Assembly (NCBI GenBank): GCA_020346465.1
Contig: CP070783.1
Location: 1,666,614-1,730,613 of the forward strand
Direction of reading: 5' to 3'
DNA: 64,000 nucleotides
DNA from: Deltaproteobacteria bacterium
GTDB lineage: Bacteria > Desulfobacterota > Deferrimicrobia > Deferrimicrobiales > Deferrimicrobiaceae
The position numbers were made by a program, and so were the translations under genes. Shown here one piece after another: positions 3,196-27,446 of the stretch; position 1 is the stretch's first letter, and every line of letters begins with the position of its first letter. Below the pieces are notes generated by a model. That model did not search any database and was not told the DNA's origin. It saw only the letters and a program-made list of their open reading frames with translations.

Positions 3196-4671
3196 TTACA
3201 TGAGCATGGAGAGGACGGAGCGCTCGGCGATCTCGAGCACGGAGCGGGGGAGGACCCCCAGGACGACCACGACGGCCGCGGAGGCGCACAGGGCCATCGA
3301 GAAGAGGATGCGCGGCGGGCGGGGGACCGGCACCTCGCCCTCCGCCGGGACCATGTACATGGCGACGACCAGCCGCAGGTAGTAGTAGATGGAGGCGGCG
3401 CTGTTGAGCACCCCGATGACCGCCAGCCAGATGTAGCCGTTTTTCACCGCGGCGCTGAAGAGGTAGAACTTCCCGACGAACCCGGCCGTCGGGGGGATCC
3501 CGCCGAGGGAGACCAGGAAGAGGGTGAGGAGGGCCCCCAGCGCCGGATACCGGAAGCCGATCCCCTTCAGGTGCGCGATGTCGTACCCCTCGTCCTCCTT
3601 CCGGGCGATGAGGATCACGACGCCGAACGCGCCCATGTTCATGAAGGCGTACACCAGCAGGTAGAACAGGGAGGCCTGCCCGCCGAGGACGTCGCCGGAG
3701 ACGAGACCGACCAGGACGTACCCGGCGTGGGCGATCGAGGAGTAGGCGAGCAGCCGTTTCACGTTGTCCTGCACGAGCGCCGAGAGGTTCCCCACGGTCA
3801 TCGTCAGCACGGCCAGGGCCCAGAGGACCTTCCACAGGACGGGCTGCATGCCGGGGAGGGCCACCAGGAGGACCCGGATGAGCGCGGCGAAGGCGGCCGC
3901 CTTGACCGCGGCGGACATGAAGGCGGTGACCACCGTCGGGGCTCCCTCGTACGCGTCCGGAGTCCACATGTGGAAGGGGACCAGCGACACCTTGAAGGCG
4001 AACCCCACCAGGAGCAGGCCCGCCCCGACGAGGAAGAGCGGGCTCGCCAGGATCCGCGGGTCGTAGAGCATCGTCGCCAGGATGGGGATCTTCGTCGTTC
4101 CGGTCGCCGCGTAGATCAGGGCGATGCCGTACAGGAGGAACCCCGAGGCGAAGGCCCCGAGGAGGAAATATTTCAGGGCGCCCTCGATCGAGGACATCCG
4201 GTTGCGGTGGAACCCGACGAGGACGTAGATCGGGATCGACAGCGTCTCCAGCCCGAGGAAGACCGTCATCAGGTCGGTCCCCTTGGCCATGAACATCATC
4301 CCCGACGTGGAGAGCAGGAGGAGCGCGTAGAACTCCCCCTTGTGCGTCGCCTCCCACTCGGAGTAGCCGGTCGCCATCATCAGGGTGAGGGCGCAGGCGG
4401 CGAGGATGACGACGTCGAAAAAGGCGCCCATCCCGTCGTGGACGATCATCCCGGAGAACCCCTCGATCCTCCCCTGCCCGAGGGCGACCACGGAGAACAG
4501 GGCGACGACGATGCCGACGAGACTGGCGCCGCAGAGAAGGTTCTTCCTCTCCTCGGGGATCGCCAGGTCGAGGAGGAGGACGAAGAGCGCCGTCGCGACC
4601 ACGGCGATCTCGGGGAGGATGCTGGTGACGCTCGTCAGCAGCGCCCCGCCGTCAATGGCCAGCGGTGCCAT
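3196..4671 (-). CDS. nuoN: NADH-quinone oxidoreductase subunit N (14-subunit cassette)
   Basis: [53 protein letters not shown]. Confidence 0.93.
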
Positions 4672-6253
4672 CGGCCCCTCCCTTCCCCACGTCGAAGTAG
4701 CGGGCGACCAGCGTCTCCCCGGGGGGGGAGTCGGCGAGCGCCGCCTGGCGCTTCGCCTCGATCCGGGCCACGAGGGCCGTGACCGAGGCGTCCATCTTCC
4801 GGAGGAACGTCTGGGGGTAGACGCCGATCCAGAAGACGAAGACGATCAGGGGCAGCATGTAGGCCACCTCCCGGGCGTTCATGTCCGGAAGATGCCGGTT
4901 CTTCTCGTTCGTGATCGTGCCGAACATCACCCGCTGGTACATCCAGAGCAGGTAGACCGCCGCGAAGATGACGCCGCTGGCCGCCACCACCGTGAGCGCC
5001 CTCATCGGCCGGAACGCCCCCACCAGGATGAGGAACTCCCCGACGAAGCCGTTCAGGCCCGGCAGGCCGATCGAGGAGAGCGTGATGACCATGAAGCAGG
5101 CGGCGTACAGGGGAACCACCCGGGACAGCCCGCCGTACTCCGAGATGAGGCGGGTGTGTCGCCTCTCGTAGAGGATCCCGACCAGGAGGAAGAGGGCCCC
5201 CGTCGAGATGCCGTGGTTGACCATCTGGAGGATCCCCCCCTCGATCCCCTGGACGTTGAAGGCGAACAGCCCGAGCATCACGAAGCCGAGGTGGGCCACG
5301 GAGGAGTACGCCACCAGCTTCTTGATGTCCTTCTGGACCATCGCCACGAAGGCCCCGTAGAGGATCCCGATGACCGCGAGCGTCGCCAGGAGGGGCGTCA
5401 GGTCCACCGCGGCCACGGGAAAGAGGGGGATCGCGAAGCGCAGGAACCCGTACGTCCCCATCTTCAGGAGGACCGCCGCCAGGATGACCGACCCCGCCGT
5501 GGGGGCGTCCACGTGGGCGTCGGGCAACCACGTGTGGAACGGGAACATCGGGACCTTGAAGGCGAACGCCAGCGCGAAGGCCGCGAACATCCAGAACTGG
5601 AGCTTCACGGGGATCACGAGCTCGGCCATCGCCAGGAGGTCGGTGGAGTAGACCCCGGTCACCGCGTAATGGTGGAAATAGAGCGCGATGATGGCGACCA
5701 GCATGAGCACCGAGCCCGCGAAGGTGAACAGGAAGAACTTGATCGCCGAGTAGATGCGCCGGTCGCTCCCCCACACCCCGATCAGGAAGTACATCGGGAT
5801 GAGGACGAGCTCCCAGAAGATGTAGAACAGGAAGAGGTCGACCGCGAGGAACACCCCCACCATCCCGACCTCGAGGAGGAGCATGAAGATCATGAACTCC
5901 TTCACGTGCTTCTCGACGGACGTGTAGGTGGACAGGATCGTGATGGGCATCAGGAACGTGGTCAGCATCAGGAGCCACAGGGAGATGCCGTCCACCCCCA
6001 CGTGGTAGCTGATCCCGTACTGCGGGATCCAGGGGACCTTCTCGACGAACTGCATCGCGGCGGTCGACCCGTCGAACAGGATCGCCACGGGGAGGGAGAG
6101 GAGAAAGTCCGCGAGCGTCAGGACGAAGGCCGTGTTCCGCAGGAGCCTCTTGTTCTCCTTCGGGAGGAAGATGAGCAGGAACGCCCCGGCGAGAGGGAGG
6201 AAGATCAGCACGCTCAGCAGGTGCGTCATCAGTGGCTGCGGCAGGGAGGTCAT
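4652..6253 (-). CDS. nuoM: NADH-quinone oxidoreductase subunit M (14-subunit cassette)
   Basis: VGVDGISL, FWELVLIPMYFLIGVWG, FKVPMFPFHTWLPDAHVDAPT; start uncertain (6253 or 6229). Confidence 0.93.
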   Translation of the reverse strand: MTSLPQPLMTHLLSVLIFLPLAGAFLLIFLPKENKRLLRNTAFVLTLADFLLSLPVAILFDGSTAAMQFVEKVPWIPQYGISYHVGVDGISLWLLMLTTFLMPITILSTYTSVEKHVKEFMIFMLLLEVGMVGVFLAVDLFLFYIFWELVLIPMYFLIGVWGSDRRIYSAIKFFLFTFAGSVLMLVAIIALYFHHYAVTGVYSTDLLAMAELVIPVKLQFWMFAAFALAFAFKVPMFPFHTWLPDAHVDAPTAGSVILAAVLLKMGTYGFLRFAIPLFPVAAVDLTPLLATLAVIGILYGAFVAMVQKDIKKLVAYSSVAHLGFVMLGLFAFNVQGIEGGILQMVNHGISTGALFLLVGILYERRHTRLISEYGGLSRVVPLYAACFMVITLSSIGLPGLNGFVGEFLILVGAFRPMRALTVVAASGVIFAAVYLLWMYQRVMFGTITNEKNRHLPDMNAREVAYMLPLIVFVFWIGVYPQTFLRKMDASVTALVARIEAKRQAALADSPPGETLVARYFDVGKGGADGTAGH

Positions 6254-6351
6254 CGGCACACGCTCATGGTGCGGCGTCTCGCAAATGGCTTGGCACACCG
6301 ATCCGCCACCGGGACAGCCCGGGACAGGCGGCCATTCCGCGCACAGGGTGC

Positions 6352-6466
6352 TGCGGGGGGATCCTCGACGCGGCCTGTGGAGCGGGAGAGAAATGGCGTC
6401 GGGCGGAACCGGCAGCGGGCGGGCGCAAGGTCGCGAGCGTAGCGGCGAGGAAGCCCCCCGCGAGCC
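6352..6466. repeat. Dispersed ~100-nt intergenic repeat, copy 2 (between nuoL and nuoM)
   Basis: Same two conserved blocks and same 33-nt block offset as copies 1 and 3; shares an extra TGCGGGGGGWTCC flank with copy 3. Confidence 0.9.
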
Positions 6467-6532
6467 CGTGCGACCGACTCGTCGGTCAATGTGTTTCCGG
6501 GACGCACCACGAGGAATCTCCCTTCACCGTTC

Positions 6533-8569
6533 TTACGGCCAGATCAGGAACCCGACGACGATCACCGCCCCCAGGAGCAGGGAGAGGGCATAGCTTCCCA
6601 CCACGCCGGTCTGCAGGCGCCTCGCCCGCTCGCCCGCGCCCCGGACGAGCGCCCCGACGCCGTTGACGATCCCGTCGATGAACGTCGCGTCGAAGGCCTC
6701 CCACAGCCAGACGGATCCGTTCACGATCCTGCGCACGATGGCGGCGTCGTAGATCTCGTCCACGTAATACTTGTTGAGCACCACGTCGTAGAGGCCCGGC
6801 ACCCTGCCGGCGATCTCCTTCGGCACCCCCGGGCGGGCCCGGTACAGGTACCAGGCGAGCCCGATCCCGCACAGCGCCACGCCCACCGAGCCGGCCATGA
6901 GGAGGTACTCGAGCGCGAGGGAGTGGTGCCCGCCGCCGTGGGCCGCCCCTTCCGTTCCGTGCCCGAAGACGGGGGCGAGCCACGCCTCGAAGTAGTTGTG
7001 CCCCCCCAGCGCCTCGGGGATGCCGATCCAGCCGCCGGCCACCGACAGGACGGCGAGGAGCATGAGCGGAACGGTCATCGAGTACGGGGACTCGTGGACG
7101 TGCCGCTCCACGTCGGGGTCCATCCGCGAATCCCCGAAGAAGGTCAGGAACACCAGGCGGAACATGTAGAACGCGGTGATCCCGGCGGCGGCGGTCCCGA
7201 CCGCCCAGAGCGCCGCGTGCCCGTGCCCCGAGGAGAACGACTTCCACAGGATCTCGTCCTTGGAGAAGAACCCGGACAGCCCCGGGATCCCCGAGATCGC
7301 CAGCGTGGCGATGAACATGGTGGTGAACGTGACCGGCAGGCGCTTCTTGAGCGATCCCATCTTCCGCATGTCCTGCTCGCCGGAGAGGGCGTGGATCACC
7401 GACCCCGAGCCCAGGAACAGGAGCGCCTTGAAGAAGGCGTGCGTCATCAGGTGGAAGATCCCCGCGGCGAAGGCGCCGACGCCGCAGGCCAGGAACATGT
7501 ACCCCAGCTGGGAGACGGTGGAGTACGCCAGCACCCGCTTGATGTCGTTCTGGGTGATCCCGATGGTCGCGGAGAAGATGGCGGTCGCCGCCCCCACCAC
7601 CGCCACCACCGCCATCGAGGTCGGCGCCAGAAGGTAGAGGGCGCTCGTCCGGGCGACCATGTAGACCCCGGCGGTGACCATCGTGGCCGCGTGGATCAGC
7701 GCGGAGACGGGGGTGGGCCCCTCCATCGCGTCCGGCAGCCAGACGTAGAGGGGGATCTGCGCCGACTTCCCCGTGGCCCCCACGAAGAGGAGCAGGGTGA
7801 TCGCGGTGGCGATTCCCGTCGTCAGGACGCCGCGTTCCGATAGGACGGGGATCCGGGCGAAGACCTCGGTGTAGTCGACCGAGCCGAAGGTCCAGAAGAT
7901 GAGGAAGATGGCGACGAGGAACCCGAAGTCGCCCACCCGGTTCACGACGAAGGCCTTCTTTCCCGCGTCGGCGGCGCTCTTCTTCTCGTACCAGTACCCG
8001 ATCAGCAGGTAGGAGCACAGGCCCACCCCCTCCCACCCGACGAACATGACGAGGAAGTTGCTCCCGAGGACGAGCAGAAGCATCGCGAAGGTGAAGAGGT
8101 TGAGGTAGACGAAGTAGCGCGCGAAGGCCTTCTCGTGGGACATGTATCCGACGGAGTAGACGTGGATGAGGAAGCCGACGCCGGTGACCACCAGGATCAT
8201 CACGGCGGAGAGCGGGTCGAGCTGAAGGGCGGCCGGGGCCTGGAACGTCCCCGCCTGGACCCACGGGAAAAGGACCTGGACGAAGAGCCGGTCGTGGGCC
8301 GGGCGCGCGGCCAGGGCGAGGACGGCCAGGACCGAGACGGCGAAGGAGGCCCCCACCACCGCGGGGCCGAGGAACGCGACCAGTTTCCGGTACGGCGGGG
8401 AGGCGTGGTGACCGTGGGCGTCGCCGGCGCCGTGCCCCCCCTCTCCGTGGGCGTTCTCCCGGAGGAGGACCGGGCGCTCGGCGAACAGCGCGATCGCGCT
8501 GTTGACGATCACCCCCAGGAGAGGGAGCGCGGGCACGAGCCAGAGATATTGGAGGATCCCGCCTACCAT
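6533..8569 (-). CDS. nuoL: NADH-quinone oxidoreductase subunit L (14-subunit cassette)
   Basis: [48 protein letters not shown]; lateral helix NKYY..QTG = 57 aa. Confidence 0.95.
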
Positions 8570-8865
8570 TTCAGCACGCTCAGTTCCGTGATGTCGATCG
8601 TCTCCTTCAGGCGGTAGATCGCGATCAGGATCGCCAGCCCCACCGCGGCCTCGGCCGCCGCGACGGTCATGACCATGAAGGCGAACACCCCCCCCGTGAC
8701 GTCGCCCAGGTAGGACCCGATCGCGATGAAGGCGACGTTGACGGCGTTGAGCATGATCTCCACGCTCATGAGGATGATGAGCGCGTTCTTGCGCGCCACC
8801 ACCCCCGTCACGCCGATCCCGAACAGGATCCCGGAGAGGAGCAGGTATGCCGACGGTTCCATCAT
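8563..8865 (-). CDS. nuoK: NADH-quinone oxidoreductase subunit K
   Basis: [24 protein letters not shown]. Confidence 0.93.
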
Positions 8866-8908: not shown

Positions 8909-9397
8909 TCAGATCTTCTTCTTCGCCAGCGCGATCGCCCCGATCACGGCGGCCAGGAGCAGGACCGAGGTGACCTCGAAGGCGAGGAGGTAGTCGGTGA
9001 ACAGCGCGCGTCCCACCGCCTCGACGGAGCCGGAGTCCGCGGCGGGCGTCCCGGCCAGCCCGAAGCGGCGGGCCACCAGGGCCCCCTCGAGGATGAGCAG
9101 TCCCGCGACGATGACCGCCAGGAAGCGCACCCCCGTCAGGCGCTCCACCGGCAGGCGGCTCTCGGGCACGTTGATCAGCATGATGACGAAGATGAACAGG
9201 ACGACCACCGCGCCCGCGTAGACGATGACCTGGATCGCCGCGAGGAAGTGGGCCTGCCGCAGGACGAACAGCGCCGCGACGGCGAAGAGGGTGAGGATCA
9301 GGTAGAGCGCCGAGGCCAGGGGGTGCCGCCGCGTGACCACCATGATCGAGCCGCCCACCGCGATGGCGCCGAAGACGATGAAGAGGATCGGTTCCAT
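8909..9397 (-). CDS. nuoJ: NADH-quinone oxidoreductase subunit J
   Basis: [35 protein letters not shown]. Confidence 0.93.
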
Positions 9398-9404: not shown

Positions 9405-9890
9405 CTATTTCTCCAGCAGCATGTCGATCGTGTAGATGAGCTTCTCCCGGGTGTGCTCCGGCGGCGTGAACCACCCGGTGTCCATCCGGATCGCGTCGCA
9501 GGGGCACGCCTCCACGCAATGCCCGCAGAAGACGCACCGGAGCATGTCGATGTCGAACCGCACCGGGTACTTCTCGACCGCCGGGTCGGGGGACTCCCCC
9601 GCGACGATGGTGATGCACACCGCGGGGCACGCGGTGGCGCAGCAGTAGCACGCCACGCACCGGGGCGTCCCGTCGGGCCGCCTCATCAGCCGGTGCAGGC
9701 CGCGGAACCGGGGGGGCATCACCCTCCGGACCTCGGGATACTCGATCGTGGCGATGTTCTCCTGCCGGAAGACGTTCCGGACGAGGTGCCCCATCGTCAC
9801 CCCGAGCCCCCGCAGGATCTCCAGGAGGTAGAGGGTCTCCCCCCCGGACATCTGCCGGGGCCGCGCGACCTTTTTCACTCCGATCGCCAT
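9405..9890 (-). CDS. nuoI: NADH-quinone oxidoreductase subunit I
   Basis: RFRGLH; two ferredoxin motifs [12 protein letters not shown] and [12 protein letters not shown]. Confidence 0.93.
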
Positions 9891-9897: not shown

Positions 9898-10998
9898 TCA
9901 CGCGCCTCCGCCGATCAGGAGCAGGACAAGCCCCGTCACGAAGATGTTTGCCAGGGACAGGGGCAAGAGCACCTTCCACCCCAGGCGCATCACCTGGTCG
10001 TACCGGAACCGGGGGATCGTCCACCGGACCCAGATGAAGAGCCATGCGAAGAAGAGCAGCTTCCCCACGAACGCCCCGATCCGCAGGAGAAGCACGAGGG
10101 GACCGGGGAGCCCGAGGGCCGCCCCTCCGGGGAGCACGAAGCCGGAGTCGGCGAGGTAGGGGACCTGCCAGCCGCCGAAGAACAGCGTCGCGATCAGGGC
10201 GGAGCCGACCACCATGTGGACGTACTCGGCCATGAAGAAGATCGAGAACTTGAAGGAGCCGTACTCCGTGTGGAACCCCGCGACGATCTCCGACTCCCCC
10301 TCCGGGAGGTCGAAGGGGGTCCGGTTCGCCTCCGCGTAGACCGCCACGAGGAAGAGGAGGAATCCGAGCGGCTGCACGAACACGCCCCACTTCGGCACGA
10401 TCCCCCACAGGAGCGTCCCCTGGGAGGCCACGATCTCCGAGAGACGGACCGACCGGAAGACCATGACCAGGCCGATGATGGAGAGCCCGAGGGAGACCTC
10501 GTAGGAGATCATCTGCGCCGAGGAGCGCAGTCCCCCCAGGAGGGGATACTTGCTGTTGGAGGCCCACCCCGCCAGGATCACGCCGTAGACCGCCAGCCCG
10601 GAGATGGCGAAGATGTAGAGGATCCCCACGTTCAGGTCCGCCACCTGCAGGGCGACCTCGCGGCCCGCGATCACGACCGGCGGCCCGACGGGGACGACGG
10701 CGAAGGTCATCAGCGCCGGGGCCAGGGCGAACATCGGGGCCATCTGGTAGAAGAGCCGGTGGGCGCCGTCGGGGATGAAGTCCTCCTTGAACAGGAGCTT
10801 GAGCGCGTCGGCAAGGGGGTGGAAGAGGCCCCCGAGCGTCAGCCCCAGGATCTTCGCCCGGTTGGGGCCGCGGCGGTCCTGGATGTAGGCCGCGCCCTTG
10901 CGCTCCGCCCACACGAGGATCGGGACGAGGGAGAGGGTGAAGGCGAGCATCACCGCCACCCGCACCACGGAGACCACGAGGTCGAACAGCCCGCTCAT
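9898..10998 (-). CDS. nuoH: NADH-quinone oxidoreductase subunit H
   Basis: [50 protein letters not shown]; start MSGLF overlaps nuoG stop. Confidence 0.93.
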
Positions 10999-13869: not shown

Positions 13870-14343
13870 CTACCGGAGCCCGTCGAGGATCGCGTCGACC
13901 TTGTCCTCGCTCAGGTCCTCGTAATAGTCGTCGTTCACCTGCATCACCGGGGCGGTGCCGCAGCTTCCCAGGCACTCCACCGTGGAAAGGGTGAACTTCC
14001 CGTCGGCGGTCGTCTCCCCGGGCCGCACGCCCAGCCTCCCCGCCACGTGCTCGATCAGGTGCTCCGCCCCCATCAGGGAGCAGGAGAGGTTCCGGCAGAC
14101 CTGGAGGTGGTACTTCCCCACCGGCTTCCGGTTGTACATGGTGTAGAAGGTCGCCACCCCCTCGACGCGGGCCGGCGTGAACCCGAGCAGGGAGGCGACG
14201 TAGGCGATGGCCTCCGCGCTGAGGTGGCCGAACTCGCGCTGGGCAAGATGGAGGGTGGGGAGGATGGCCGCCTCCCGGTTGGGATAGCGGGCAAGCATCC
14301 TCTCGTGCCTCGCGCGCGTGTCCTCGGAAAAGGCCAGGCTCAC
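13870..14343 (-). CDS. nuoE: NADH-quinone oxidoreductase subunit E
   Basis: VATFYTMY, VCRNLSC, VECLGSC; GTG start overlaps nuoD stop. Confidence 0.92.
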   Translation of the reverse strand: MSLAFSEDTRARHERMLARYPNREAAILPTLHLAQREFGHLSAEAIAYVASLLGFTPARVEGVATFYTMYNRKPVGKYHLQVCRNLSCSLMGAEHLIEHVAGRLGVRPGETTADGKFTLSTVECLGSCGTAPVMQVNDDYYEDLSEDKVDAILDGLR

Positions 14344-16058: not shown

Positions 16059-16070
16059 TCCCCGTCCGCC

Positions 16071-16568: not shown

Positions 16569-16948
16569 TGCCAATCGAGCGCCCCCTTCTTCCAGGCGTA
16601 GATCAGACCCACGAGAAGGATTCCCACGAAGATCGCCATCTCGAGGAAGCCGAACAGGCCGAGATCCCGGAAGAGGACCGCCCACGGGTAGAGGAACGCC
16701 GTCTCCAGATCGAAGAGGATGAAGAGGAGGGCGACCAGGTAGAACTTCACCGACACGCGCACGGAGGCGGACGTGAAAGGGTCCACGCCGCACTCGTAGA
16801 CGCTGTACTTGATCCTCTCATACCGCTTGGGACCCAGGGCCTGGGAGAGGAAGACGAACCCCACCGACATTCCGACGGCGATGATCAGGAGCAGGAGGAT
16901 GGAGAAGTACGGGTCGGAAAACCGGATGGTGGAAACGAGGTTTGCCAC
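16565..16948 (-). CDS. nuoA: NADH-quinone oxidoreductase subunit A (14-subunit cassette)
   Basis: [39 protein letters not shown]. Confidence 0.93.
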
Positions 16949-16961
16949 CGGACCCTCCCTC

Positions 16962-18440: not shown

Positions 18441-18441
18441 C

Positions 18442-19986: not shown

Positions 19987-22191
19987 TCAGAAAGCTTTCA
20001 CCAGGAATATGATCAGCACCCCGCCCGCCAGCACGAACACGTAGTGGTAGAGCTTCCCGGTCTGGAACCGGCGGAAGAAGGAGCCGCTGCCGATCGTGAC
20101 GTCGGCCACGCCGTTCACCGCGCCATCGACCACGTGGTTGTCAAATTTTCCGATGAGGAACGAGGCCCAGACGCCCAGCTGCGCGCAGAGGTTGACCAGC
20201 CCGTCGACCACGTACAGGTCGAACCAGCCCAGCGCGCGGGAGAGGGCCTTCGTCCCGTTGACGGCCGTCGCCTCGTACAGTTCGTCGAAGTACCACTTGT
20301 TGAGCAGGAAGGTGTGGACGGGACGGACCGCGGTCGCCACCTTCTCGGGATCGATCCACCGGAACCGGAAGACGACGAACGCCAGCCCGATGCCGAGCGT
20401 GCCGAACAGGACGGAAAGGTACATCGACCAGACGTGGGCCAGGTGATCCAGGTGCGCCTCGTGGGACGCTCCGTGCCCACCGGCCTCCGCTCCGGGCGCG
20501 GCCTCGTGCGGAACGGCCGGGGGATGCTTCTCCCCCTGCGGCGCCGGTACGGCATGTCCCGGCGTCCCGGGCCTTTCGGATGCGGCGGCCGCGTGGGCGG
20601 CCGGCTCGTGGCCCGCCCCCTTCGGCTCCGCGCTCTCCGCGGCGAAGGCGGCCCCGGCCGACGGGACGTGCAGGACGGAGTCGGCCGAGCCGGCGGAAGC
20701 CGGAACGGCATGGACGGCGGGAATCGCCGACGCGGGCGTCTTCACGAGGTCGCCGAACCAGCCGCTGTACCAGAAGGAGAAGGAGAGCCCCGCCAGGACC
20801 ACGAGAGGAACCCACATGTTGGGGGGCGACTCGTGGGCGTGGTCGAACTTGTGGCGGTCCTTCGGCTCCCCGAGGAACGTTCGGATCACCAGCCGGAACA
20901 TGTAGTAGGCCGTCATCCCCGCGGTCAGGAGGGCCCCCGCGAACAGGATCATGTGCTGCGGGTTCTTCATCCCGAACAGGAGGGCCGACTTGAGGATCAT
21001 GTCCTTGCTGTAGAACCCCGAGAAGAGGGGGACCCCCGCGATCGAGAGCGTGGCGATGAGGAAGGTGATGAAGGTGATCGGCATCTTCTTCCGCAGCGCC
21101 CCCATCTCGGTGATCTCCTGGCTGTGGACGGCGTGGATCACCGACCCGGAGCCGAGGAAGAGGCAGGCCTTGAAGGCGGCGTGGGTGGTCAGGTGCGCGA
21201 GACCTGCGGTGAAGCCCCCCACCCCGAGCCCCAGGATCATGTATCCGAGCTGGGAGCACGTGGAGTAGGCGAGGACCTTCTTGATGTCGGTGGCCGTGAG
21301 CGCGATCGTGGCCGTGATGAACAGGGTGAGCAGCCCGGTGTAGGCGATGAAGAGGAAGGCGTCCGGCGTGAAGATCGGGTAGACGCGCCCCACGAGGTAG
21401 ACGCCCGCGGCGACCATCGTCGCCGCATGGATCAGCGCCGAGACGGGGGTGGGGCCCTCCATCGCGTCGGGGAGCCAGACGTGGAGCGGGAATTGCGCGG
21501 ACTTGCCGATGGCGCCGCAGAAGATCCCGATCCCGGCCAGCGTCAGGAGGGTCCCTTCGATCTTTCCCTCCGCGATGCCCCGGAAGACCTCGTCGTACCC
21601 GAGCACCCCGGTCGTGGCGAACAGGAGCAGGAACCCGATCAGGAACCCGAAGTCGCCGATCCGGTTCACGATGAACGCCTTCTTCCCGGCGTCGGCGGCC
21701 GACTTCTTCTCGAACCAGAACCCGATGAGCGCGTAGGAGGAGAACCCGACCAGCTCCCAGAAGATGTAGATGAAGAAGAAACTCTCGGCCAGGACGAGCC
21801 CGAGCATGGAGAAGGAGAAGACGGAGAGGTAGGCGAAGAACCGGCTGTACTTCGGGTCGCCGTGCATGTACCCGACCGAGAACAGGTGGACGAGGAAGGA
21901 GACTCCGGTCACCACGACGAGCATCACGGCCGTCAGATTGTCCACGAGGATCCCCGCATTGATGACGAACCGGCCTTCCAGGGAGAGCCACGGGACCACG
22001 ACGTGGTACCGGAAGTTCGGGTCGTAGATCCGGAAGACCTCGAAAAAGATCACGATCGACATCACGAGCCCCGCGCCGATCGTGGCGAGGGATACCCAGT
22101 CCCCCTTCCGGGGGAGCCGCTTCCCGACCGCGAGGTTGACGAAGAAGGAGAGCAGCGGCAGGAACGGGATGATGTAGGCGTATCGGATCAA
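19987..22191 (-). CDS. nuoL: Complex I subunit L (11-subunit cassette), with extended lateral helix and ~100-aa low-complexity loop
   Basis: [32 protein letters not shown]; NKWY..QTG = 82 aa with FDxxVVDGxVN twice, 26 aa apart. Confidence 0.94.
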   Translation of the reverse strand: MIRYAYIIPFLPLLSFFVNLAVGKRLPRKGDWVSLATIGAGLVMSIVIFFEVFRIYDPNFRYHVVVPWLSLEGRFVINAGILVDNLTAVMLVVVTGVSFLVHLFSVGYMHGDPKYSRFFAYLSVFSFSMLGLVLAESFFFIYIFWELVGFSSYALIGFWFEKKSAADAGKKAFIVNRIGDFGFLIGFLLLFATTGVLGYDEVFRGIAEGKIEGTLLTLAGIGIFCGAIGKSAQFPLHVWLPDAMEGPTPVSALIHAATMVAAGVYLVGRVYPIFTPDAFLFIAYTGLLTLFITATIALTATDIKKVLAYSTCSQLGYMILGLGVGGFTAGLAHLTTHAAFKACLFLGSGSVIHAVHSQEITEMGALRKKMPITFITFLIATLSIAGVPLFSGFYSKDMILKSALLFGMKNPQHMILFAGALLTAGMTAYYMFRLVIRTFLGEPKDRHKFDHAHESPPNMWVPLVVLAGLSFSFWYSGWFGDLVKTPASAIPAVHAVPASAGSADSVLHVPSAGAAFAAESAEPKGAGHEPAAHAAAASERPGTPGHAVPAPQGEKHPPAVPHEAAPGAEAGGHGASHEAHLDHLAHVWSMYLSVLFGTLGIGLAFVVFRFRWIDPEKVATAVRPVHTFLLNKWYFDELYEATAVNGTKALSRALGWFDLYVVDGLVNLCAQLGVWASFLIGKFDNHVVDGAVNGVADVTIGSGSFFRRFQTGKLYHYVFVLAGGVLIIFLVKAF

Positions 22192-22220: not shown

Positions 22221-22523
22221 TCAGCCCCTGAGCTGGTCGGCCGCGTCCACCTCCACGGTGCCCGTCGTGGAGAAGAGCCGCAGGAAGATGGCCAGCGCAA
22301 CGGCCGCTTCGGCGGCCGCGAGCACGATGACGAACACGGCGAAGATCTGCCCCCCGATGAGATGGGAGACGTAGTGCGAAAACGCCACGAAGTTGATGTT
22401 GGCGGCGTTCAGGACCAGCTCCACCCCCATGAGGACGGCCACCGCGTTGCGCCGCGTCAGGATCGTGTACAGGCCGCAGCAGAACAGGGCGGCGGCGATG
22501 ACGAGAAGCTTGTCCAGAGCCAT
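22221..22523 (-). CDS. nuoK: Complex I subunit K (11-subunit cassette)
   Basis: LMGVELVLNAANIN, LAAAEAAVALAI. Confidence 0.93.
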   Translation of the reverse strand: MALDKLLVIAAALFCCGLYTILTRRNAVAVLMGVELVLNAANINFVAFSHYVSHLIGGQIFAVFVIVLAAAEAAVALAIFLRLFSTTGTVEVDAADQLRG

Positions 22524-23057
22524 CTACTTCGGTTCCTCCATGTCGGGTCTGGCGACGTCGGGCCGGTCCGGCCGCGAAAGGAGCGCCGCCCCGATGAGCG
22601 CGGCGAGCAGCAGCACGGAGGCGACTTCGAACGGGAGCAGGTACCGGGTCATCAGCAGTTCGCCGATCTCGGCCGTGGTCGGCTGGTAGGTGACCCGGGC
22701 CTTCAGGGCGAAGGCCGGGGACACCGCCGTGTACGCAAGCGTGCCGAACAGGACGAGGCAGATCCCCGCCGCGGGAAGTCGGAAGTGGACCGGGTTCGAC
22801 AGCTTGACGGAGGAGATCCGGTTCGACAGGAAGACCGCGAACATGATCAGCACGAGGATCCCGCCGACGTACACGAGCAGCTGCGTGGCAGCCAGGAAGT
22901 CCGCGGAAAGGAGCACGTACAACCCCGCGACGCCTCCGAAGGTGAACAGCAGCGCCACCGCGGAGTAGATGATGTTCCGCAGGGTCGCCACGAGGATCGC
23001 CGACCCCACCGTCATGGCCGCAAGCACGTAGAAGATCAGGTCCGCCGGTCCCTTCAT
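22524..23057 (-). CDS. nuoJ: Complex I subunit J (11-subunit cassette)
   Basis: QLLVYVGGILVLIMFAVFL, LPFEVASVLLLAALIGA. Confidence 0.92.
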   Translation of the reverse strand: MKGPADLIFYVLAAMTVGSAILVATLRNIIYSAVALLFTFGGVAGLYVLLSADFLAATQLLVYVGGILVLIMFAVFLSNRISSVKLSNPVHFRLPAAGICLVLFGTLAYTAVSPAFALKARVTYQPTTAEIGELLMTRYLLPFEVASVLLLAALIGAALLSRPDRPDVARPDMEEPK

Positions 23058-23788
23058 TCCTTCCCCTCCCCGCCCTCATCCCCGGCCTTCGCGGGCTCCT
23101 CTTCCGTCTCCTTCGCGGGCTTCTTCCCCGCCGCGTCGGCCGTTTCGGGATTCCCCGCCGCAAACGCCGGCGCGGCGGGCTGGATGAACGGCGCGGCCTC
23201 CTCTCTCGGGGGCTTCGGCGGGGGGGAAGGATCGGGGGCCTGCGGCGCGTCGGCTGGCTTCGCCGCCTTTTCCGCCTCGCCCTTCTCCGCCTCCGCTTTT
23301 GCCTTCTCCGCTTCCGCCTTCGCCGCGGCTTCCGCCACCTGCTTCGCCACGCGGCCCTTGACCGTCTCCGCATCCTCGGGGACGAAGTGGAGGATCAGTT
23401 CCCCGCGGCTGACCGTCGCCATCTCGTAGCCGCTGGTGTGGACGAGAGACTTCGGGGGGCAGACCTCGACGCAGAGCCCGCAGTACATGCAGCGCCCGAT
23501 GTTGATGTCGTAGGAGGCCAGCACCATCTTCTTGTCGGCGCCCCGGACGGCCTCGAGGGAGATGCAGTCGACCGGGCAGACCCTCACGCACATCGTGCAG
23601 CTCGTGCACCTCTTGATGTCGTTGTGCAGGAACCCCCGATACCGCTCCGACGGCTCCCAGCGCTCCTCCGGGTACTGGAGGGTGATCGTCTCCCTCGGGT
23701 CCACCCCGTACCGCGCGGTGATCCGCATCCCCTTCGCGGTGGTCGCCACCGCTTCCCAGATGTCGTATAGGTACGCTTTGAAGCCCAT
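23054..23788 (-). CDS. nuoI: Complex I subunit I (11-subunit cassette) with ~100-aa Ala/Pro/Glu/Lys tail
   Basis: TLQYPEE, CTSCTMCVRVCP, CMYCGLCVEVCP. Confidence 0.92.
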   Translation of the reverse strand: MGFKAYLYDIWEAVATTAKGMRITARYGVDPRETITLQYPEERWEPSERYRGFLHNDIKRCTSCTMCVRVCPVDCISLEAVRGADKKMVLASYDINIGRCMYCGLCVEVCPPKSLVHTSGYEMATVSRGELILHFVPEDAETVKGRVAKQVAEAAAKAEAEKAKAEAEKGEAEKAAKPADAPQAPDPSPPPKPPREEAAPFIQPAAPAFAAGNPETADAAGKKPAKETEEEPAKAGDEGGEGKE

Positions 23789-23792
23789 CCCG

Positions 23793-24911
23793 TTATCCGA
23801 AAAGCGACGCGATCATCTGGGGGATCCCCCTCCCCTGGAAGAGCAGCAGCCAGAGGGAGACGCCCAGGAGGTTGAAGAACGTGAGCGGAACCAGATACTT
23901 CCACGACATGCGCATGAGCTGGTCCACGCGCAGCCGCGGAAGGGTCCACCGGACCCACATCATGACGACGACGAGGCCCAGCGCCTTGCCGAGGAAGACG
24001 CCCAGCGAGAAGAGGTTGCCCCAGACGGCGGGGAGGGCCTCCGCGTTGAGGAAGGGGACGTGCCACCCTCCCAGGAAGCAGGCGGTCGCCAGGGCGGAGA
24101 CGACGAACATGTCCCCGTACTCGGCGAGGAAGAAGAAGGCGAACCGGATCCCGGAGTATTCGACGTGGTACCCGGCGACCAGCTCCGACTCGGCCTCCGG
24201 GATGTCGAAGGGGGTCCGGTTGGTCTCGGCCAGCGCGGCGACGTAATACAGGAAGAAGGAGAAGAAGGTGAACGGGTTGTGGAAGAGGTTCCACCCGAAG
24301 ATCCCGAACAGCCCCCCCTGGGACCGCACGATGTCCTGCAGGGAGAGGGAGCCGGCGATGAGGACCGCGGGGAGCAGCGCCATCCCCACGGGGATCTCGT
24401 ACGAGACGATCTGGGCCGCCGCGCGCATCCCCCCCAGGAGGGCCCACTTGTTGTTGGAGGCCCATCCCGCGACCAGCACGCCCACCACTACGAGCGAGGT
24501 GATTGCCATCACGTAGTAGATGCCGATGTTGAGGTCCGAGGCGATCAGCCCCACCCCGAAGGGGACGACCACGAAGGCCGCGAAGGAGCCGATGAAGACG
24601 AGGTACGGCGCCAGGACGAAGAGGAAGCGGTCCGCCTTGGCCGGGATGATGTCCTCCTTGAGGAGGAGCTTGATCCCGTCGGCCAGGAACTGGAGGATCC
24701 CCACGGGACCGACCCGGTTCGGACCGATGCGCGCCTGGATGTCGCCGGCCACCTTCCGCTCCACGTAGGTCGCCAGGCCCGCGTACGTCAGCGCGAAGGT
24801 GAGGACGACCGCGGCGACCACGACCATGATCAGGAGGGTGATCGTCCACAGGGGGACTCCCGAGAGCACCGGCACGGCGTCGACGAGGGATATCGCGAGG
24901 GATTCCAGCAT
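23793..24911 (-). CDS. nuoH: Complex I subunit H (11-subunit cassette)
   Basis: ERKVAGDIQARIGPNRVG, RAAAQIVSYE, ETNRTPFDIPEAESELVAGYHVEY. Confidence 0.93.
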   Translation of the reverse strand: MLESLAISLVDAVPVLSGVPLWTITLLIMVVVAAVVLTFALTYAGLATYVERKVAGDIQARIGPNRVGPVGILQFLADGIKLLLKEDIIPAKADRFLFVLAPYLVFIGSFAAFVVVPFGVGLIASDLNIGIYYVMAITSLVVVGVLVAGWASNNKWALLGGMRAAAQIVSYEIPVGMALLPAVLIAGSLSLQDIVRSQGGLFGIFGWNLFHNPFTFFSFFLYYVAALAETNRTPFDIPEAESELVAGYHVEYSGIRFAFFFLAEYGDMFVVSALATACFLGGWHVPFLNAEALPAVWGNLFSLGVFLGKALGLVVVMMWVRWTLPRLRVDQLMRMSWKYLVPLTFFNLLGVSLWLLLFQGRGIPQMIASLFG

Positions 24912-24913
24912 GG

Positions 24914-26044
24914 CTACCGGTCGATCTCCGGGAGGATGATGTCGAAGCTGCCGATGACCGCCACGATGTCGGCGATCATCAGCCCCCTGGTGATCTTCTC
25001 GAAGATGTTCATCGTCACGAAGGAGGGGGCGCGGATCTTGAGCCGGTACGGGTTCACGGTCCCGTCGCTGATCAGGTAGATCCCCGTCTCCCCCCGCGGG
25101 TTCTCGGCGCGGAAGTAGACCTCCCCCACGGGCGGCTTGAACACCCGGGGGACCTTGGCCATCACGGGCCCGTCGGGAATCTGGGCGATCGCCTGGCGCA
25201 GGATCTTCACGCTTTCCCGCATCTCGTTGATCCGCACCATGTACCGGTCGAAGCAGTCCCCCACCGTCCCCCGCTCCCCCGTCCCGACGCAGATGTCGAA
25301 GTCGATCTTCGGGTAGACCGAGTACGGCTCGTTCCTGCGGAGATCGAACCGGACTCCGGACCCCCGCAGGTTCGGCCCCGTGAGCCCGTAGGCGACGGCA
25401 TCCTCGGGCGTTGCCACCGCGACGTTGGCCAGCCGGTGGACGAAGATCTTGTTGTAGGAGATCAGGTCGTTGTACTCGGGGATCTTCGGATCGAAGTAGT
25501 CGAGGAACTCCTTCGTCTTCTCGAGGAACCGGTCCGGCAGGTCGGCCGAGACGCCGCCGATGCGGACGTAGTTGTACGTCAGCCGGTTCCCGCAGATCTC
25601 CTCGAACAGGTCGTTGATCCGCTCCCGCTCGCGGATGGCGTAGAGAAACGGCGTGAAGGCCCCCATGTCGGCGGTGAACGACCCGAAGGCGATCAGGTGG
25701 GAGGAGATCCGGTTCAGCTCGCACACGATCACCCGGATGTATTCCGCCCGCTCGGGAACCTCGATGCCGGCCAGCTTCTCCACGGCCCAGGCCCACGCCG
25801 CGTTGCAGTTCATCGAGGCGAGGTAGTCGAGCCGGTCGGTGAACGGCATGAACTGCGCGTAGGTGACCCGCTCCCCGATCTTTTCCAGCGCCCGGTGCAG
25901 GTACCCCACGTCGGGCCTGGCGTTGACCACGACCTCGCCGTCGGTCCGCAGGATCACCCGGAGCACCCCGTGGGTGCTCGGGTGCTGGGGACCCATGTTG
26001 ATGAGCATCTCCTGGGTGGGGAGCGCTTCCGCGCGGGCTTTCAT
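24914..26044 (-). CDS. nuoD: Complex I subunit D (11-subunit cassette)
   Basis: NMGPQHPSTHGVLR, GYLHRALEK, DRLDY, PEIDR. Confidence 0.94.
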   Translation of the reverse strand: MKARAEALPTQEMLINMGPQHPSTHGVLRVILRTDGEVVVNARPDVGYLHRALEKIGERVTYAQFMPFTDRLDYLASMNCNAAWAWAVEKLAGIEVPERAEYIRVIVCELNRISSHLIAFGSFTADMGAFTPFLYAIRERERINDLFEEICGNRLTYNYVRIGGVSADLPDRFLEKTKEFLDYFDPKIPEYNDLISYNKIFVHRLANVAVATPEDAVAYGLTGPNLRGSGVRFDLRRNEPYSVYPKIDFDICVGTGERGTVGDCFDRYMVRINEMRESVKILRQAIAQIPDGPVMAKVPRVFKPPVGEVYFRAENPRGETGIYLISDGTVNPYRLKIRAPSFVTMNIFEKITRGLMIADIVAVIGSFDIILPEIDR

Positions 26045-26511
26045 ACCTTGATCCCGTGGTAGAACTCGGGGTATTTGTAGTCCTTGCGCAGGGGGTGCCC
26101 CTCCCAGTCCTCCGGGAGAAGGATGCGGCGCAGATCCCAGGACCCCTCGAAGACGATCCCGAACAGGTCGAACGCCTCCCTCTCGTGGAAGTTCGCCGTG
26201 GGCCACACGCCGTCGACGCTGGGAAGGGACGGCGACTCTCTGGGCAGGTATGCCTTGACCCCGATCCGGTGCCCGATCGCAAGGGAGTGGAGGTGGTAGA
26301 CGACGGCGAACCGGTCCGGGTAGTCGACGCCGGACAGGCACATCAGCGAGTCGAACTTCATCGCGGGGTCGTCGCGAAGGAACCGTCCGATCTCACGGAC
26401 CTTCTCCGGGGAGACGACGAGGAACGCCGGGCGGAAGCCCTCCTCCTGGAGCTCCGACACCGCCTCGCCGAACGTTGCCCTGACCGCCTCGAAGATCGCT
26501 TTCGGTTCCAA
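26041..26511 (-). CDS. nuoC: Complex I subunit C (11-subunit cassette)
   Basis: ANFHEREAFDLFGIVFEG..LRRILLPEDWEGHPLRKDY. Confidence 0.93.
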   Translation of the reverse strand: MEPKAIFEAVRATFGEAVSELQEEGFRPAFLVVSPEKVREIGRFLRDDPAMKFDSLMCLSGVDYPDRFAVVYHLHSLAIGHRIGVKAYLPRESPSLPSVDGVWPTANFHEREAFDLFGIVFEGSWDLRRILLPEDWEGHPLRKDYKYPEFYHGIKV

Positions 26512-26520
26512 AAGGTTTCC

Positions 26521-27054
26521 TTACGCCTTCGCCGCCGCCGCGAAATTTCTCTTCTGGTCGATGATCTTCTGGAGCTTGATGATCCCGTCGATGAGCGCCT
26601 CGGGCCGGGGGGGGCACCCGGGGACGTAGACGTCTACCGGGACGAGCAGGTCCACCCCTTTGACCACGCAGTACGAATCCTTGTAGAAGGGCCCGCCCGT
26701 GTTGGCGCATGAGCCCATGGAAATCACGTACTTGGGCTCGGGCATCTGCTCGTACAGGCGGATCAGCCGCTCCGCCATCTTGTGCGTGACAGTCCCCGCG
26801 ACGATCATCAGGTCCGACTGCCGGGGGGTCGCCCGGAAGACGGCGCCGAACCGGTCGAGGTCGTACCGCGAGGCACCGGTCTGCATCAGCTCGATGCCGC
26901 AGCAGGCCGTCGCGAACAGAAGGTACCAGAGCGAGGACCTCCGGCACCAGTTGATGAACTTGTCGGCATTGCCCACCATGACATGCGCTTCGGGGCCGAG
27001 AGCCCCCGGGCCCGCAGCGGGTCCCGGGCCGCCCTGTGCAGGATCCTGGCTCAT
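26521..27054 (-). CDS. nuoB: Complex I subunit B (11-subunit cassette)
   Basis: [34 protein letters not shown]. Confidence 0.93.
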
Positions 27055-27446
27055 TTCCCTTCCTTCGCGGCAGGAGGTTCCTGGAGGGTGCGCACCCAGT
27101 CGAGGTCCCCCTCCTTCCAAAGGTAGGCCAGGCCCGCGAGCAGGATGACGATGAAGATGAACGCCTCCACGAACGCCAGGAGGCCCAGCCGCTTGAAGAC
27201 GACCGCCCACGGGTAGAGGAGCGCCACCTCCACGTCGAAGATGATGAAGATCAGGGCCACCACGTAGAAGCGGATGTTGAACTGCACCCAAGAGGAGCCG
27301 AACGGGACCTCCCCGCACTCGTACGTGGACAGCTTGACCGGCGTGGGGTTCCGGGGCTGGATCAGCCGGGAGATCCCCAGCATGAGGGCCACGGTCACCG
27401 CTCCCAGCAGGATGAACACCAGAACCGTTGCGTAATCAGCGAGCAT
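27051..27446 (-). CDS. nuoA: Complex I subunit A (11-subunit cassette)
   Basis: [39 protein letters not shown]; start 27446 or 27455. Confidence 0.93.

Follow-up and report, generated by a model that had tools for sequence, protein, structure and literature searches.

Whether two complex I gene sets that lie end to end encode two enzymes or the exchangeable parts of one, and whether they are expressed as a single unit, is the question raised by a locus in the genome of an uncultured iron-reducing bacterium (MBNT15/Deferrimicrobiaceae). In the window, the 64,000 nt stretch of DNA that was analysed, Pfam scans place nuoABCDHIJKLMN on the minus strand from 27446 to 16962, followed by a full nuoA-N set from 16948 to 3196. 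Cassette 1 comprises eleven genes (nuoA, B, C, D, H, I, J, K, L, M and N) and contains no nuoE, nuoF or nuoG, while cassette 2 comprises 14 genes, nuoA to nuoN, in canonical order. All 25 genes share the minus strand. Both content and coordinates agree with the first-pass annotation, which had described an EFG-less 11-gene set adjoining a complete one. A second nuoM is absent from both cassettes. The peptidase U32 gene upstream of nuoA1 lies on the plus strand (start 27628, end 28524) and is thus divergent, which fixes the position of the first promoter to the intergenic region 27447..27627; on the minus strand this region would hold the nuoA1 promoter and 5' leader and includes a hairpin and U-rich run (27507-27486). 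The explanation considered probable here is that the locus encodes two proton-pumping complex I enzymes, each separate and complete, as one head-to-tail array on one transcript, with ferredoxin as the donor of the first.

Sequence comparison supports the view that the cassettes are distinct complex I gene sets whose divergence is ancient. BLASTP identity between the paralogues of a pair is 30-52%, and a NuoD tree resolves reciprocally monophyletic Nuo11 and Nuo14 clades (support 95/96), with NuoD1 inside the former and NuoD2 inside the latter. The earlier claim of divergent copies that do not stem from a recent duplication is thereby borne out, by identity as well as by the two NuoD clades. 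The topologies of the clades broadly mirror each other (Ignavibacteriota/Bacteroidota, Latescibacterota/Gemmatimonadota, Binatia/Acidobacteriota/Verrucomicrobiota and the MBNT15 lineage), a parallel diversification that spans about 10 phyla and marks them as an old, non-redundant pair.

Cassette 1 opens with nuoA1 (27051..27446, 131 aa; PF00507, E = 1.6e-38; alternative GTG start at 27455), which shares an ATGA overlap with nuoB1 (26521..27054, 177 aa; PF01058, E = 1.4e-30). In alignments NuoB1 retains all four cluster-N2 cysteines and the CCGIE, GSC and GCPP motifs. It is followed by nuoC1 (26041..26511, 156 aa; PF00329, E = 4.4e-45) and nuoD1 (24914..26044, 376 aa), whose PF00346 match (E = 5.8e-97) is split at profile positions 174/196. 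NuoD1 keeps the quinone-site HPSTHG and DRLDY motifs, shows no NiFe CxxC motifs in the alignment, and is 25 aa short relative to NuoD2 in a segment present in every Nuo14-type NuoD; its best PDB match is the cyanobacterial NdhH (6hum_H). Next come nuoH1 (23793..24911, 372 aa; PF00146, E = 2.6e-117) and nuoI1 (23054..23788, 244 aa; Fer4 families), the product of which carries two CxxCxxCxxxCP motifs and, by alignment with NuoI2, a 100 aa C-terminal tail rich in Ala, Glu, Lys and Pro (23057-23356). The membrane subunits are encoded by nuoJ1 (22524..23057, 177 aa; PF00499, E = 3.6e-35), nuoK1 (22221..22523, 100 aa; PF00420; both membrane glutamates kept in the alignment), nuoL1 (19987..22191, 734 aa; PF00361 and PF00662), nuoM1 (18442..19971, 509 aa; PF00361 and PF01059; TM5 Glu, TM7 Lys and TM12 Glu kept) and, as the last gene, nuoN1 (16962..18440, 492 aa; PF00361, E = 3.2e-73; pumping residues kept). 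Alignment with outgroup NuoL reveals a 97 aa insert in NuoL1 rich in Ala, Pro and His (20440-20730), and across NuoL, NuoM and NuoN the TM5 Glu, TM7 Lys and TM12 Lys/Glu/Lys are retained. All eleven reading frames are intact, with orthologues in relatives up to 96% identical. Judged from its Fe-S ligands, quinone-site His/Tyr and pumping residues, all of which are kept, cassette 1 is functional-looking.

The Nuo11 of Ignavibacteriota, Chlorobiaceae and Bacteroidota consists of the same 11 genes, identically ordered, likewise lacks NuoEFG and has an intact Q-module and P-module. NuoD1 falls in one clade with the copies from these groups, and their NuoN proteins match NuoN1 at 48-51% identity. 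In those groups the cassette stands alone as an operon; the present lineage has it fused to a Nuo14 operon and adds the His/Pro/Ala-rich NuoL1 insert and the long acidic/basic NuoI1 tail.

Cassette 2 begins with nuoA2 (16565..16948, 127 aa; GTG start; PF00507, E = 6.1e-38), nuoB2 (16071..16574, 167 aa; PF01058), for which the start is a chosen one, nuoC2 (15567..16058, 163 aa; PF00329, E = 7.8e-48) and nuoD2 (14340..15560, 406 aa), whose PF00346 match is unsplit (E = 4.6e-108). The N-module follows: nuoE2 (13870..14343, 157 aa; 2Fe-2S_thioredx, PF01257, E = 8.2e-58), nuoF2 with the NADH/FMN site (12583..13851, 422 aa; Complex1_51K, PF01512; SLBB; NADH_4Fe-4S, PF10589) and nuoG2 (10995..12575, 526 aa; PF13510, PF10588, PF22117, PF04879 and PF00384, with Fer2_4, NADH-G_4Fe-4S_3, Fer4_Nqo3 and Molybdopterin domains). 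The remaining genes are nuoH2 (9898..10998, 366 aa; PF00146, E = 6.9e-114), nuoI2 (9405..9890, 161 aa; Fer4 families), nuoJ2 (8909..9397, 162 aa; PF00499), nuoK2 (8563..8865, 100 aa; PF00420), nuoL2 (6533..8569, 678 aa; PF00361, PF00662 and PF01010), nuoM2 (4652..6253, 533 aa; PF00361, E = 2.7e-79; alternative starts up to 6298) and nuoN2 (3196..4671, 491 aa; PF00361, E = 6e-78), the last gene of the unit. In gene number and order cassette 2 resembles the canonical NDH-1 of Thermus thermophilus (Nqo1-14) and E. coli (NuoA-N), and T. thermophilus Nqo4 is the best solved relative of NuoD2 (E = 5e-111). It differs from canonical NDH-1 in its short NuoG2 of only 526 aa, a length about equalled by the tblastn matches in relatives, and in having no obvious promoter of its own, starting as it does 13 nt past the last gene of another operon.

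An alternative to two separate enzymes is that NuoEFG (or, for example, NuoM2) docks on the cassette 1 core to form hybrid complexes, in which case the fusion would serve subunit stoichiometry. This is very improbable. Among 15 sampled genomes from other phyla with the Nuo11 type, 14 also carry Nuo14, with NuoF beside NuoD, and the co-diversification of the paralogues would fit such sharing too, but the Nuo11 cassette is self-sufficient and mostly distant from Nuo14, and one sampled Neomarinimicrobiota genome is without any NuoF. The missing 25 aa segment of NuoD1 and the 30-52% identity of the core subunits also make interchangeable interfaces unlikely. A further point for sharing was the lateral helix of NuoL1, a segment of 82 aa (20056-20301) against 57 aa in NuoL2, with about 25 extra residues between NKWY and QTG. 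Chadwick and colleagues reportedly described, in ISME J in 2018, a '2M' complex I that has a fourth pump subunit and a lengthened NuoL helix, and the extra helix length in those enzymes is said to be about 25 residues, as in NuoL1. Unlike the 2M enzyme, neither cassette here has a second nuoM, and all nine stand-alone Nuo11 outgroup cassettes in the alignment, which have one nuoM apiece, also encode the long helix. The helix is therefore unrelated to the cassette fusion, and as a hint of a borrowed pump subunit it was rejected, being a clade-wide trait. In green sulfur bacteria the 11-subunit Nuo11 is the sole complex I (PMC3362086). Nothing was found in favour of the earlier ideas that the complexes share NuoEFG or exchange subunits, cassette 1 being a complete Nuo11 member, or that they divide forward and reverse electron transport between them.

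For the two-enzyme reading, the electron donor of cassette 1 is probably ferredoxin reduced by 2-oxoacid:ferredoxin oxidoreductases. The genome holds six POR_N-type genes for such enzymes and no Rnf or Nqr. The donor of Nuo11 has been established in no organism studied so far (PMC11238625).

The two cassettes meet at a 13-nt junction (16949..16961, minus strand), which reads ...ACC AAC TGA GAGGGAGGG TCCG GTG GCA AAC... The nuoN1 stop codon (16964-16962) is directly abutted by the Shine-Dalgarno GAGGGAGGG, with TCCG separating it from the nuoA2 GTG at 16948; the gap of 13 bp and the abutting ribosome-binding site noted in the first-pass annotation are both read in the sequence. DNA contigs from three independent studies cross the junction with 0 (X1), 6 (X9) and 5 (X10) differences over 2 kb, and the same junction occurs in 13 independently assembled relatives. 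The junction is genuine and not an assembly join. That it was mis-assembled, or that cassette 1 is a degenerating copy, is an explanation for which no supporting evidence was found, and the contigs, the 13 assemblies and the intact frames, catalytic residues and close orthologues of cassette 1 leave it a negligible probability.

RNA-library contigs from three metatranscriptome studies also cross the junction (X26, 16901-17096; X27, 16917-17181; X28, 16925-17172), each with 2-3 differences; these are unstranded assembler contigs of patchy coverage, from a type of library that can contain DNA. Both cassettes are represented in the RNA libraries of these studies, and four further RNA runs gave no contig across the junction. 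A strict sigma-70 consensus scan detected no promoter-like site in 2500-28600, and since it was silent even upstream of nuoA1, its silence at the junction carries little weight. No terminator-like site was found in the nuoN1-nuoA2 gap, the nearest weak call lying within nuoA2 (16878-16861). With that caveat on the promoter scan, the results match the earlier statement that neither element is visible between the cassettes. Because RNA contigs cross the junction and no promoter- or terminator-like site is found there, it is likely that both cassettes are co-transcribed by read-through. The short conserved gap with its Shine-Dalgarno and the crossing contigs thus make the earlier claim of co-expression likely.

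Long respiratory operons often contain internal promoters, and one buried in the 3' part of cassette 1, in nuoM1 or nuoN1, might drive cassette 2 separately, with read-through adding to it; the 13-nt gap would then reflect tight packing rather than obligatory co-expression. The consensus scan is blind to the promoters of this organism, as it also misses the one needed upstream of nuoA1, and the crossing RNA contigs cover no more than 135-220 nt of nuoN1, so that transcripts beginning further upstream would look alike. Against this stand the failure to detect a promoter-like hexamer pair and the synonymous sites of nuoN1, at the 3' end of which no raised conservation was found (third-codon-position conservation of 0.54-0.63 over the last 250 nt, against a gene mean of 0.67). 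Separate regulation of this kind is unlikely, though far from negligible, and is also opposed by the long persistence of the abutment in two classes, even though other phyla tolerate insertions.

Independently assembled genomes show the tandem order at 13 loci. Both nuoD copies lie on one contig in 22 genomes of the same family, and in all of these they share a strand at a distance of 10.2-10.8 kb, the Nuo11 nuoD being the upstream copy. The order recurs in family f2 (G192, G029) and, outside the class, in a family of a different one (G002, G048); every scorable relative from these three families, two in the class and one outside it, has it with a gap of 13-52 nt. All relatives' junctions that were read out contain a purine-rich Shine-Dalgarno. 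Synteny thus bears out the cassette order and short gap across related genomes of two classes, and it indicates that direct abutment has long been maintained in these two classes of the phylum, the array being kept head-to-tail through most of the lineage. In other phyla the Nuo11 cassette is usually far from Nuo14, and insertions between the cassettes are tolerated.

Under the favoured reading of two co-transcribed enzymes, transcription would start in the 180 nt that separate nuoA1 from the divergent gene and read through the 13-nt junction, where ribosomes on the strong GAGGGAGGG site would initiate nuoA2, yielding a single transcript of about 24.3 kb and 25 genes. Cassette 1, a member of the widespread Nuo11 clade without an N-module, would feed electrons from a non-NADH donor, presumably reduced ferredoxin made by several 2-oxoacid:ferredoxin oxidoreductases, into the quinone pool, and cassette 2 would act as an ordinary NADH:quinone oxidoreductase. 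One such transcript would mean that the ferredoxin- and NADH-linked respiratory entry points are produced together.

The tandem layout is already published, together with the divergence and the ferredoxin idea, for a relative, Candidatus Deferrimicrobium borealis SHF-111, which has two adjacent nuo clusters and for which ferredoxin was proposed as donor (Begmatov et al. 2022, Front Microbiol 13:951761, PMC9386147). Both fall in one family-level lineage, the relatives of nuoN1 being labelled Deferrimicrobiaceae/Deferrimicrobium; the SHF-111 genome measures 2.68 Mb in six contigs, against 2.32 Mb in one contig here. Added here, and absent from that paper, are the order of the genes, the Shine-Dalgarno junction of 13 nt, the evidence on transcription, the occurrence across the class and further, and the parallel phylogeny. 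Full and EFG-less nuo clusters also neighbour each other, conserved within the lineage, in Candidatus Actinomarinales (Lopez-Perez et al. 2020, PMC7771536), but there heliorhodopsin and iron-uptake genes lie between them in place of a direct fusion, and the truncated set, from a different phylum, resembles the F420H2 dehydrogenase type (PMC7771536).

Within cassette 2 the 234-nt spacer between nuoL2 and nuoM2 (6299..6532, minus strand) holds one copy of an intergenic repeat of about 115 nt (6352-6466) that occurs in 12 copies in the genome. In relatives nuoL2 and nuoM2 are spaced by about 30-45 nt, and in G132 and G068 the tblastn matches end 33-44 nt apart. The repeat element between these genes was counted against one uninterrupted transcript. 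A further copy (2986-3084) lies in the 305 nt of non-coding DNA 3' of nuoN2.

The window carries two complex I gene sets in tandem, with every gene of both on the minus strand. As the genome is about 66% G+C and therefore rich in spurious open frames, the true frames of the nuo genes were fixed by Pfam matches. Cassette 1 is an 11-gene set of the Nuo11 type and comprises nuoA1 (27446-27051), nuoB1 (27054-26521), nuoC1 (26511-26041), nuoD1 (26044-24914), nuoH1 (24911-23793), nuoI1 (23788-23054), nuoJ1 (23057-22524), nuoK1 (22523-22221), nuoL1 (22191-19987), nuoM1 (19971-18442) and nuoN1 (18440-16962), with no nuoE, nuoF or nuoG among the Pfam assignments. Cassette 2, of the Nuo14 type, runs in canonical order from nuoA2 to nuoN2 (16948 to 3196) and holds all 14 genes nuoA-N, including an N-module composed of NuoE with its 2Fe-2S domain (PF01257), NuoF with the FMN/NADH site (PF01512, PF10589) and NuoG with its Fe-S domains (PF13510, PF10588, PF22117, PF00384). 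The junction between the two reads ACC AAC TGA-GAGGGAGGG-TCCG-GTG, so that the 13-nt gap is almost wholly Shine-Dalgarno sequence. By BLASTP the paralogous subunits share from 30% (NuoI) to 52% (NuoB) identity. The first-pass annotation had reported these gene sets, the 13-nt gap and the divergence of the paralogues, and the Pfam matches, junction sequence and BLASTP comparison bear it out in every element. NuoG2 (10995-12575) is just 526 aa long, with all N-terminal Fe-S domains present and the molybdopterin-like part truncated, and its tblastn match in relatives is about equally long.

The junction is real DNA. Logan metagenome contigs from three separate studies traverse it, namely X1 (1908 nt, with no differences over 16000-17087), X9 (3807 nt) and X10 (7908 nt), and together with independently assembled relatives they rule out an assembly join, which had been named as one finding that would undo the proposed fusion. 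The source genome is itself a single contig of 2.32 Mb.

The fused order is also conserved. A scan with NuoN1, taking one genome per species, showed the nearest relatives (74-88% identity) to be MAGs that carry the labels Candidatus Deferrimicrobiaceae, Deferrimicrobium and 'Deltaproteobacteria CSP1-8', which together represent the MBNT15 lineage, and all 25 proteins were then placed on 80 fetched loci. Genes of both cassettes are found in 11 of the 14 MBNT15-type loci; two more (L011 and L016) hold only nuoN1 followed by nuoA2, and the last (L032) ends inside nuoN1. In all 13 loci that reach past nuoN1, nuoA2 follows directly after an intergenic sequence of 13 to about 32 nt, each with a purine-rich Shine-Dalgarno sequence. 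When 78 genomes of the class were searched with the NuoD family, 22 same-family genomes proved to have both nuoD copies on one contig. In every one of these (22/22) the copies share a strand, the Nuo11-type copy is the upstream one and the distance between them is 10.2-10.8 kb; the other genomes say nothing on this point, as their copies are on separate contigs, most of them short. The fused order extends to a second family of the class, where the gap is about 52 nt in genome G192 and the cassettes of G029 (locus L017) are split only by a contig end, and, within the same GTDB phylum, to a family of a different class (G002 and G048, gap about 19 nt). The synteny comparison that had been suggested as a check thus finds the same arrangement within the family, in a second family and in another class.

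Several features suggest that the 25 genes form one transcription unit. They share a strand and are separated by short gaps with no terminator between the cassettes, and the sole long internal gap, 234 nt between nuoL2 and nuoM2, is due to a repeat insertion. No promoter-like site was found in 2500-28600 by a consensus scan, and no terminator-like hairpin in the nuoN1-nuoA2 gap, the nearest weak match being inside nuoA2. These scans agree with the earlier observation that neither signal is visible between the cassettes, but the silence of the strict sigma-70 scan at the junction carries little weight and cannot discriminate, since the scan is equally silent upstream of nuoA1, where a promoter must exist. 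As the peptidase U32 gene upstream of nuoA1 (27628-28524) lies on the opposite strand, the promoter of cassette 1 must be located in 27447-27627. This leader also contains a terminator-like hairpin (CCCTTCTCGTCATGCGGAGGGG then TTCTGCTTTG) at 27486-27507 on the minus strand, about 40 nt upstream of nuoA1, which might act as an attenuator or represent a leader structure. The possibility of a promoter embedded in the end of nuoN1 was addressed by third-codon-position conservation among eight relatives, which over the last 250 nt is 0.54-0.63 and thus below the gene mean of 0.67, giving no sign of an overlapping conserved signal.

Public metatranscriptome runs with near-identical sequence provide the RNA evidence, in the form of unstranded assembler contigs that may include DNA carry-over. 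In three runs from three studies an RNA-library contig of this kind crosses the junction: X26 (16901-17096, 3 differences), X27 (16917-17181, 2 differences) and X28 (16925-17172, 2 differences). Coverage of both cassettes in these three libraries is patchy, and four further RNA runs yielded contigs on either side of the junction and none across it. The contigs support read-through transcription across the junction; they do not prove it. Of the interpretation first put on this locus, co-expression of the two complexes is likely to be right, whereas the accompanying proposal that they share subunits is unsupported.

Cassette 1 is intact and, judging from its residues, looks catalytically competent. 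In alignments NuoB1 has the four cluster-N2 cysteines and NuoI1 both CxxCxxCxxxCP motifs, so that the redox chain of the Q-module is complete. NuoK1 has both glutamates, and a six-way comparison of the antiporter-like subunits L, M and N shows that L1, M1 and N1 retain the TM5 Glu, TM7 Lys and TM12 Lys/Glu/Lys pattern. NuoD1 is of the quinone-reductase type, with HPSTHG (HPxxHG) and DRLDY motifs and none of the CxxC pairs of NiFe hydrogenases in the alignment, and it matches complex I/NDH-1 chains with E values of 1e-110 to 1e-85 compared to 3e-59 for MbhL. A degenerate or 'pseudo' complex I is ruled out by this retention of Fe-S, quinone-site and pumping residues. Among solved structures, NuoD1 is closest to the cyanobacterial NdhH (6hum_H) from the ferredoxin-dependent NDH-1 and NuoD2 to Nqo4 of T. 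thermophilus. NuoI1 additionally carries a 100-aa Ala/Glu/Lys/Pro-rich C-terminal tail (residues 145-244, 23057-23356) that NuoI2 lacks; it is probably disordered and shows little conservation even among close relatives, in which the tblastn match extends over no more than the first ~147 aa. Ahead of its last helices NuoL1 contains a low-complexity insert of 97 aa rich in Ala, Pro, His and Gly (residues 488-584, 20440-20730), which the close relative L007 also has and which is missing from 9/9 outgroup Nuo11 NuoL proteins.

A fusion of this kind might be maintained by a physical or stoichiometric coupling of the two enzymes, for example if the single NuoEFG module docked reversibly on either Q-module or if the two complexes formed a supercomplex. 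This would allow the cell to switch between NADH-driven and ferredoxin-driven quinone reduction, or to reverse one enzyme, with a single set of input subunits, and the near-universal co-occurrence and co-diversification of Nuo11 and Nuo14 across about ten phyla is compatible with such coupling without requiring it. Beyond co-occurrence nothing favours the sharing of NuoEFG or the exchange of subunits, and several points speak against it: the Nuo11 cassette is complete, self-contained and usually far from Nuo14; in green sulfur bacteria the 11-subunit set is the only one (PMC3362086); one sampled Neomarinimicrobiota genome lacks any NuoF homologue; the core subunits are just 30-52% identical; and NuoD1 is missing a segment found in all Nuo14-type NuoD proteins. 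Sharing and coupling alike are considered very improbable. The genome encodes only one complex-I-linked NuoF, that of cassette 2. The sole other NuoF-like gene lies outside the window (C1:869869-872091), and its product, which by eye is of the HydB/HoxF type with a thioredoxin-like N-terminus, a NuoF core and a C-terminal 2x[4Fe-4S] domain, probably belongs to an NAD-linked hydrogenase or formate dehydrogenase rather than to complex I.

The segment absent from NuoD1 corresponds to 25 aa of NuoD2 (EKADVYENIEALMNHFKHVMDGVQV), and the site is at ~25132, after residue 304 and at profile positions ~175-195. NuoD2 is of the unsplit canonical type and matches PF00346 positions 1-271 in one stretch, whereas every phylum sampled shows a split match (profile 1-~174 plus ~195-271) in its Nuo11-type NuoD. 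The split match hence marks the Nuo11 clade and might be used to recognise its members simply from sequence. Mapping of this deletion onto the NuoG interface found no answer at residue level in the E. coli structure paper.

The lateral-helix segment of NuoL (NKWY...QTG) is longer in NuoL1 (82 aa, residues 631-712, 20056-20301) than in NuoL2 (57 aa), the extra length being a duplicated FDxxVVDGxVN motif. This matches the ~25-aa NuoL extension of the 2M-type complex I, an enzyme with a fourth pump subunit; unlike that enzyme, which has a second nuoM, each cassette here encodes a single M subunit, as do the outgroup cassettes. The long helix was considered as a sign that cassette 1 borrows NuoM2, and this was rejected because the helix is not specific to this locus and so is uninformative about borrowing: it occurs clade-wide and is seen in all nine NuoL proteins aligned from stand-alone Nuo11 cassettes, none of which has more than one nuoM. 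The NuoL proteins of I. album and Chlorobiaceae have a further ~55-aa insert.

Outside the lineages with the fusion the Nuo11 cassette stands alone, among others in Nitrospinota, Poribacteria, Latescibacterota, Gemmatimonadota, Ignavibacteriota, Chlorobiaceae, Bacteroidota and Binatia. Of the 15 genomes sampled that carry a stand-alone Nuo11, 14 have a Nuo14 cassette as well, and NuoF likewise, which fits side-by-side inheritance and renders a search for Nuo11 genomes without NuoF uninformative as a test of independence from NuoEFG; the Neomarinimicrobiota genome is the one in which no NuoF homologue was found. A few MAGs have a Nuo14 set on the same contig as Nuo11 at a distance of 7-40 kb, which is ~7 kb in Marinimicrobia (L085), ~9 kb in Acidiferrales (L075), ~16 kb in Verrucomicrobiia (G202) and ~40 kb in Binatia (G203). 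This suggests either an old linkage that is eroding or repeated convergence towards linkage. In L085, L075 and G202 the cassettes share a strand, with Nuo11 upstream.

A maximum-likelihood tree of 45 NuoD sequences, including both copies from the same genome where possible, separates a Nuo11 from a Nuo14 clade with 95/96 support. NuoD1 falls in a clade with the 11-subunit copies of Ignavibacterium album, Chlorobiaceae and Bacteroidota (95/96) and NuoD2 groups with the Nuo14 copies. Several groupings largely recur in both clades: Ignavibacteriota with Chlorobiaceae and Bacteroidota; Latescibacterota with Gemmatimonadota; Binatia, Acidiferrales, Verrucomicrobiia and a Myxococcota-labelled MAG; and the two MBNT15 families. 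The copies of G002 and Nitrospinota are placed differently in the two halves of the tree. The recurring groupings indicate that the duplication predates these phyla and that the paralogues have largely been inherited side by side.

The fused layout is already known in substance, since it has been described for Ca. Deferrimicrobium borealis SHF-111 (Begmatov et al. 2022; PMC9386147) and neighbouring 14-gene and 11-gene nuo clusters have been reported in Ca. Actinomarinales, where, unlike here, other genes lie between the two (PMC7771536). In SHF-111 the nuo paralogues share 31-60% identity and are not the product of a recent duplication, and the EFG-less set was proposed to receive electrons possibly from reduced ferredoxin (PMC9386147). 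The value of the present analysis is mainly confirmatory, as the layout is published for a relative and the organism is uncultured; it adds the exact junction, its conservation within the class and outside it, the RNA-library contigs that span it, the intact catalytic residues and the mirrored NuoD phylogeny. The locus touches on two wider questions, namely what donates electrons to the widespread 11-subunit complex I, whose donor is not established in any organism (PMC11238625), and why many bacteria keep Nuo11 beside a normal complex I. Throughout a candidate class both enzymes remain together in what appears to be one transcription unit, and the paralogues are inherited together across many phyla, which argues for complementary and simultaneously needed roles, for example ferredoxin and NADH entry into the quinone pool. 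With six POR_N-type 2-oxoacid:ferredoxin oxidoreductase genes and no Rnf or Nqr in the genome, oxidative metabolism would yield reduced ferredoxin and NADH together, and having a ferredoxin-type and an NADH-type quinone reductase in a single operon would make both entry points available at the same time. The same gene content is indirect evidence that cassette 1 may use an electron donor other than NADH.

Downstream of nuoN2, at a distance of 305 nt, lies a minus-strand gene named from its sequence as a WrbA-like flavodoxin-fold protein (2285-2890). It was rejected as a conserved partner or donor, not being found downstream of nuoN2 in three relatives (G132, G068 and G002). The region 3' of nuoN2 folds no better than shuffled sequence (z = 0.08). 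The repeat between nuoL2 and nuoM2, where relatives have only ~30-45 nt, belongs to a ~115-nt intergenic family with 12 copies of 73-91% identity in the 2.32-Mb genome, three of them in the window (6352-6466, 2986-3084 and 28554-28666) and nine elsewhere. In this family a strongly conserved core (GCTACGCTCGCGACCTTGCGCCCGCTCGCTGCCGGTTCCGCTCG ... CTCGCTCCACAGGCCGC) lies between G/C-rich inverted ends, and Rfam gave no matches in 1-32000 or in the nuoL2-nuoM2 spacer, repeat included. Nine of the 12 copies are located 30-110 nt downstream of a gene and in the orientation of that gene, and RNA-library depth is high over the repeat copy at 28368-28751.
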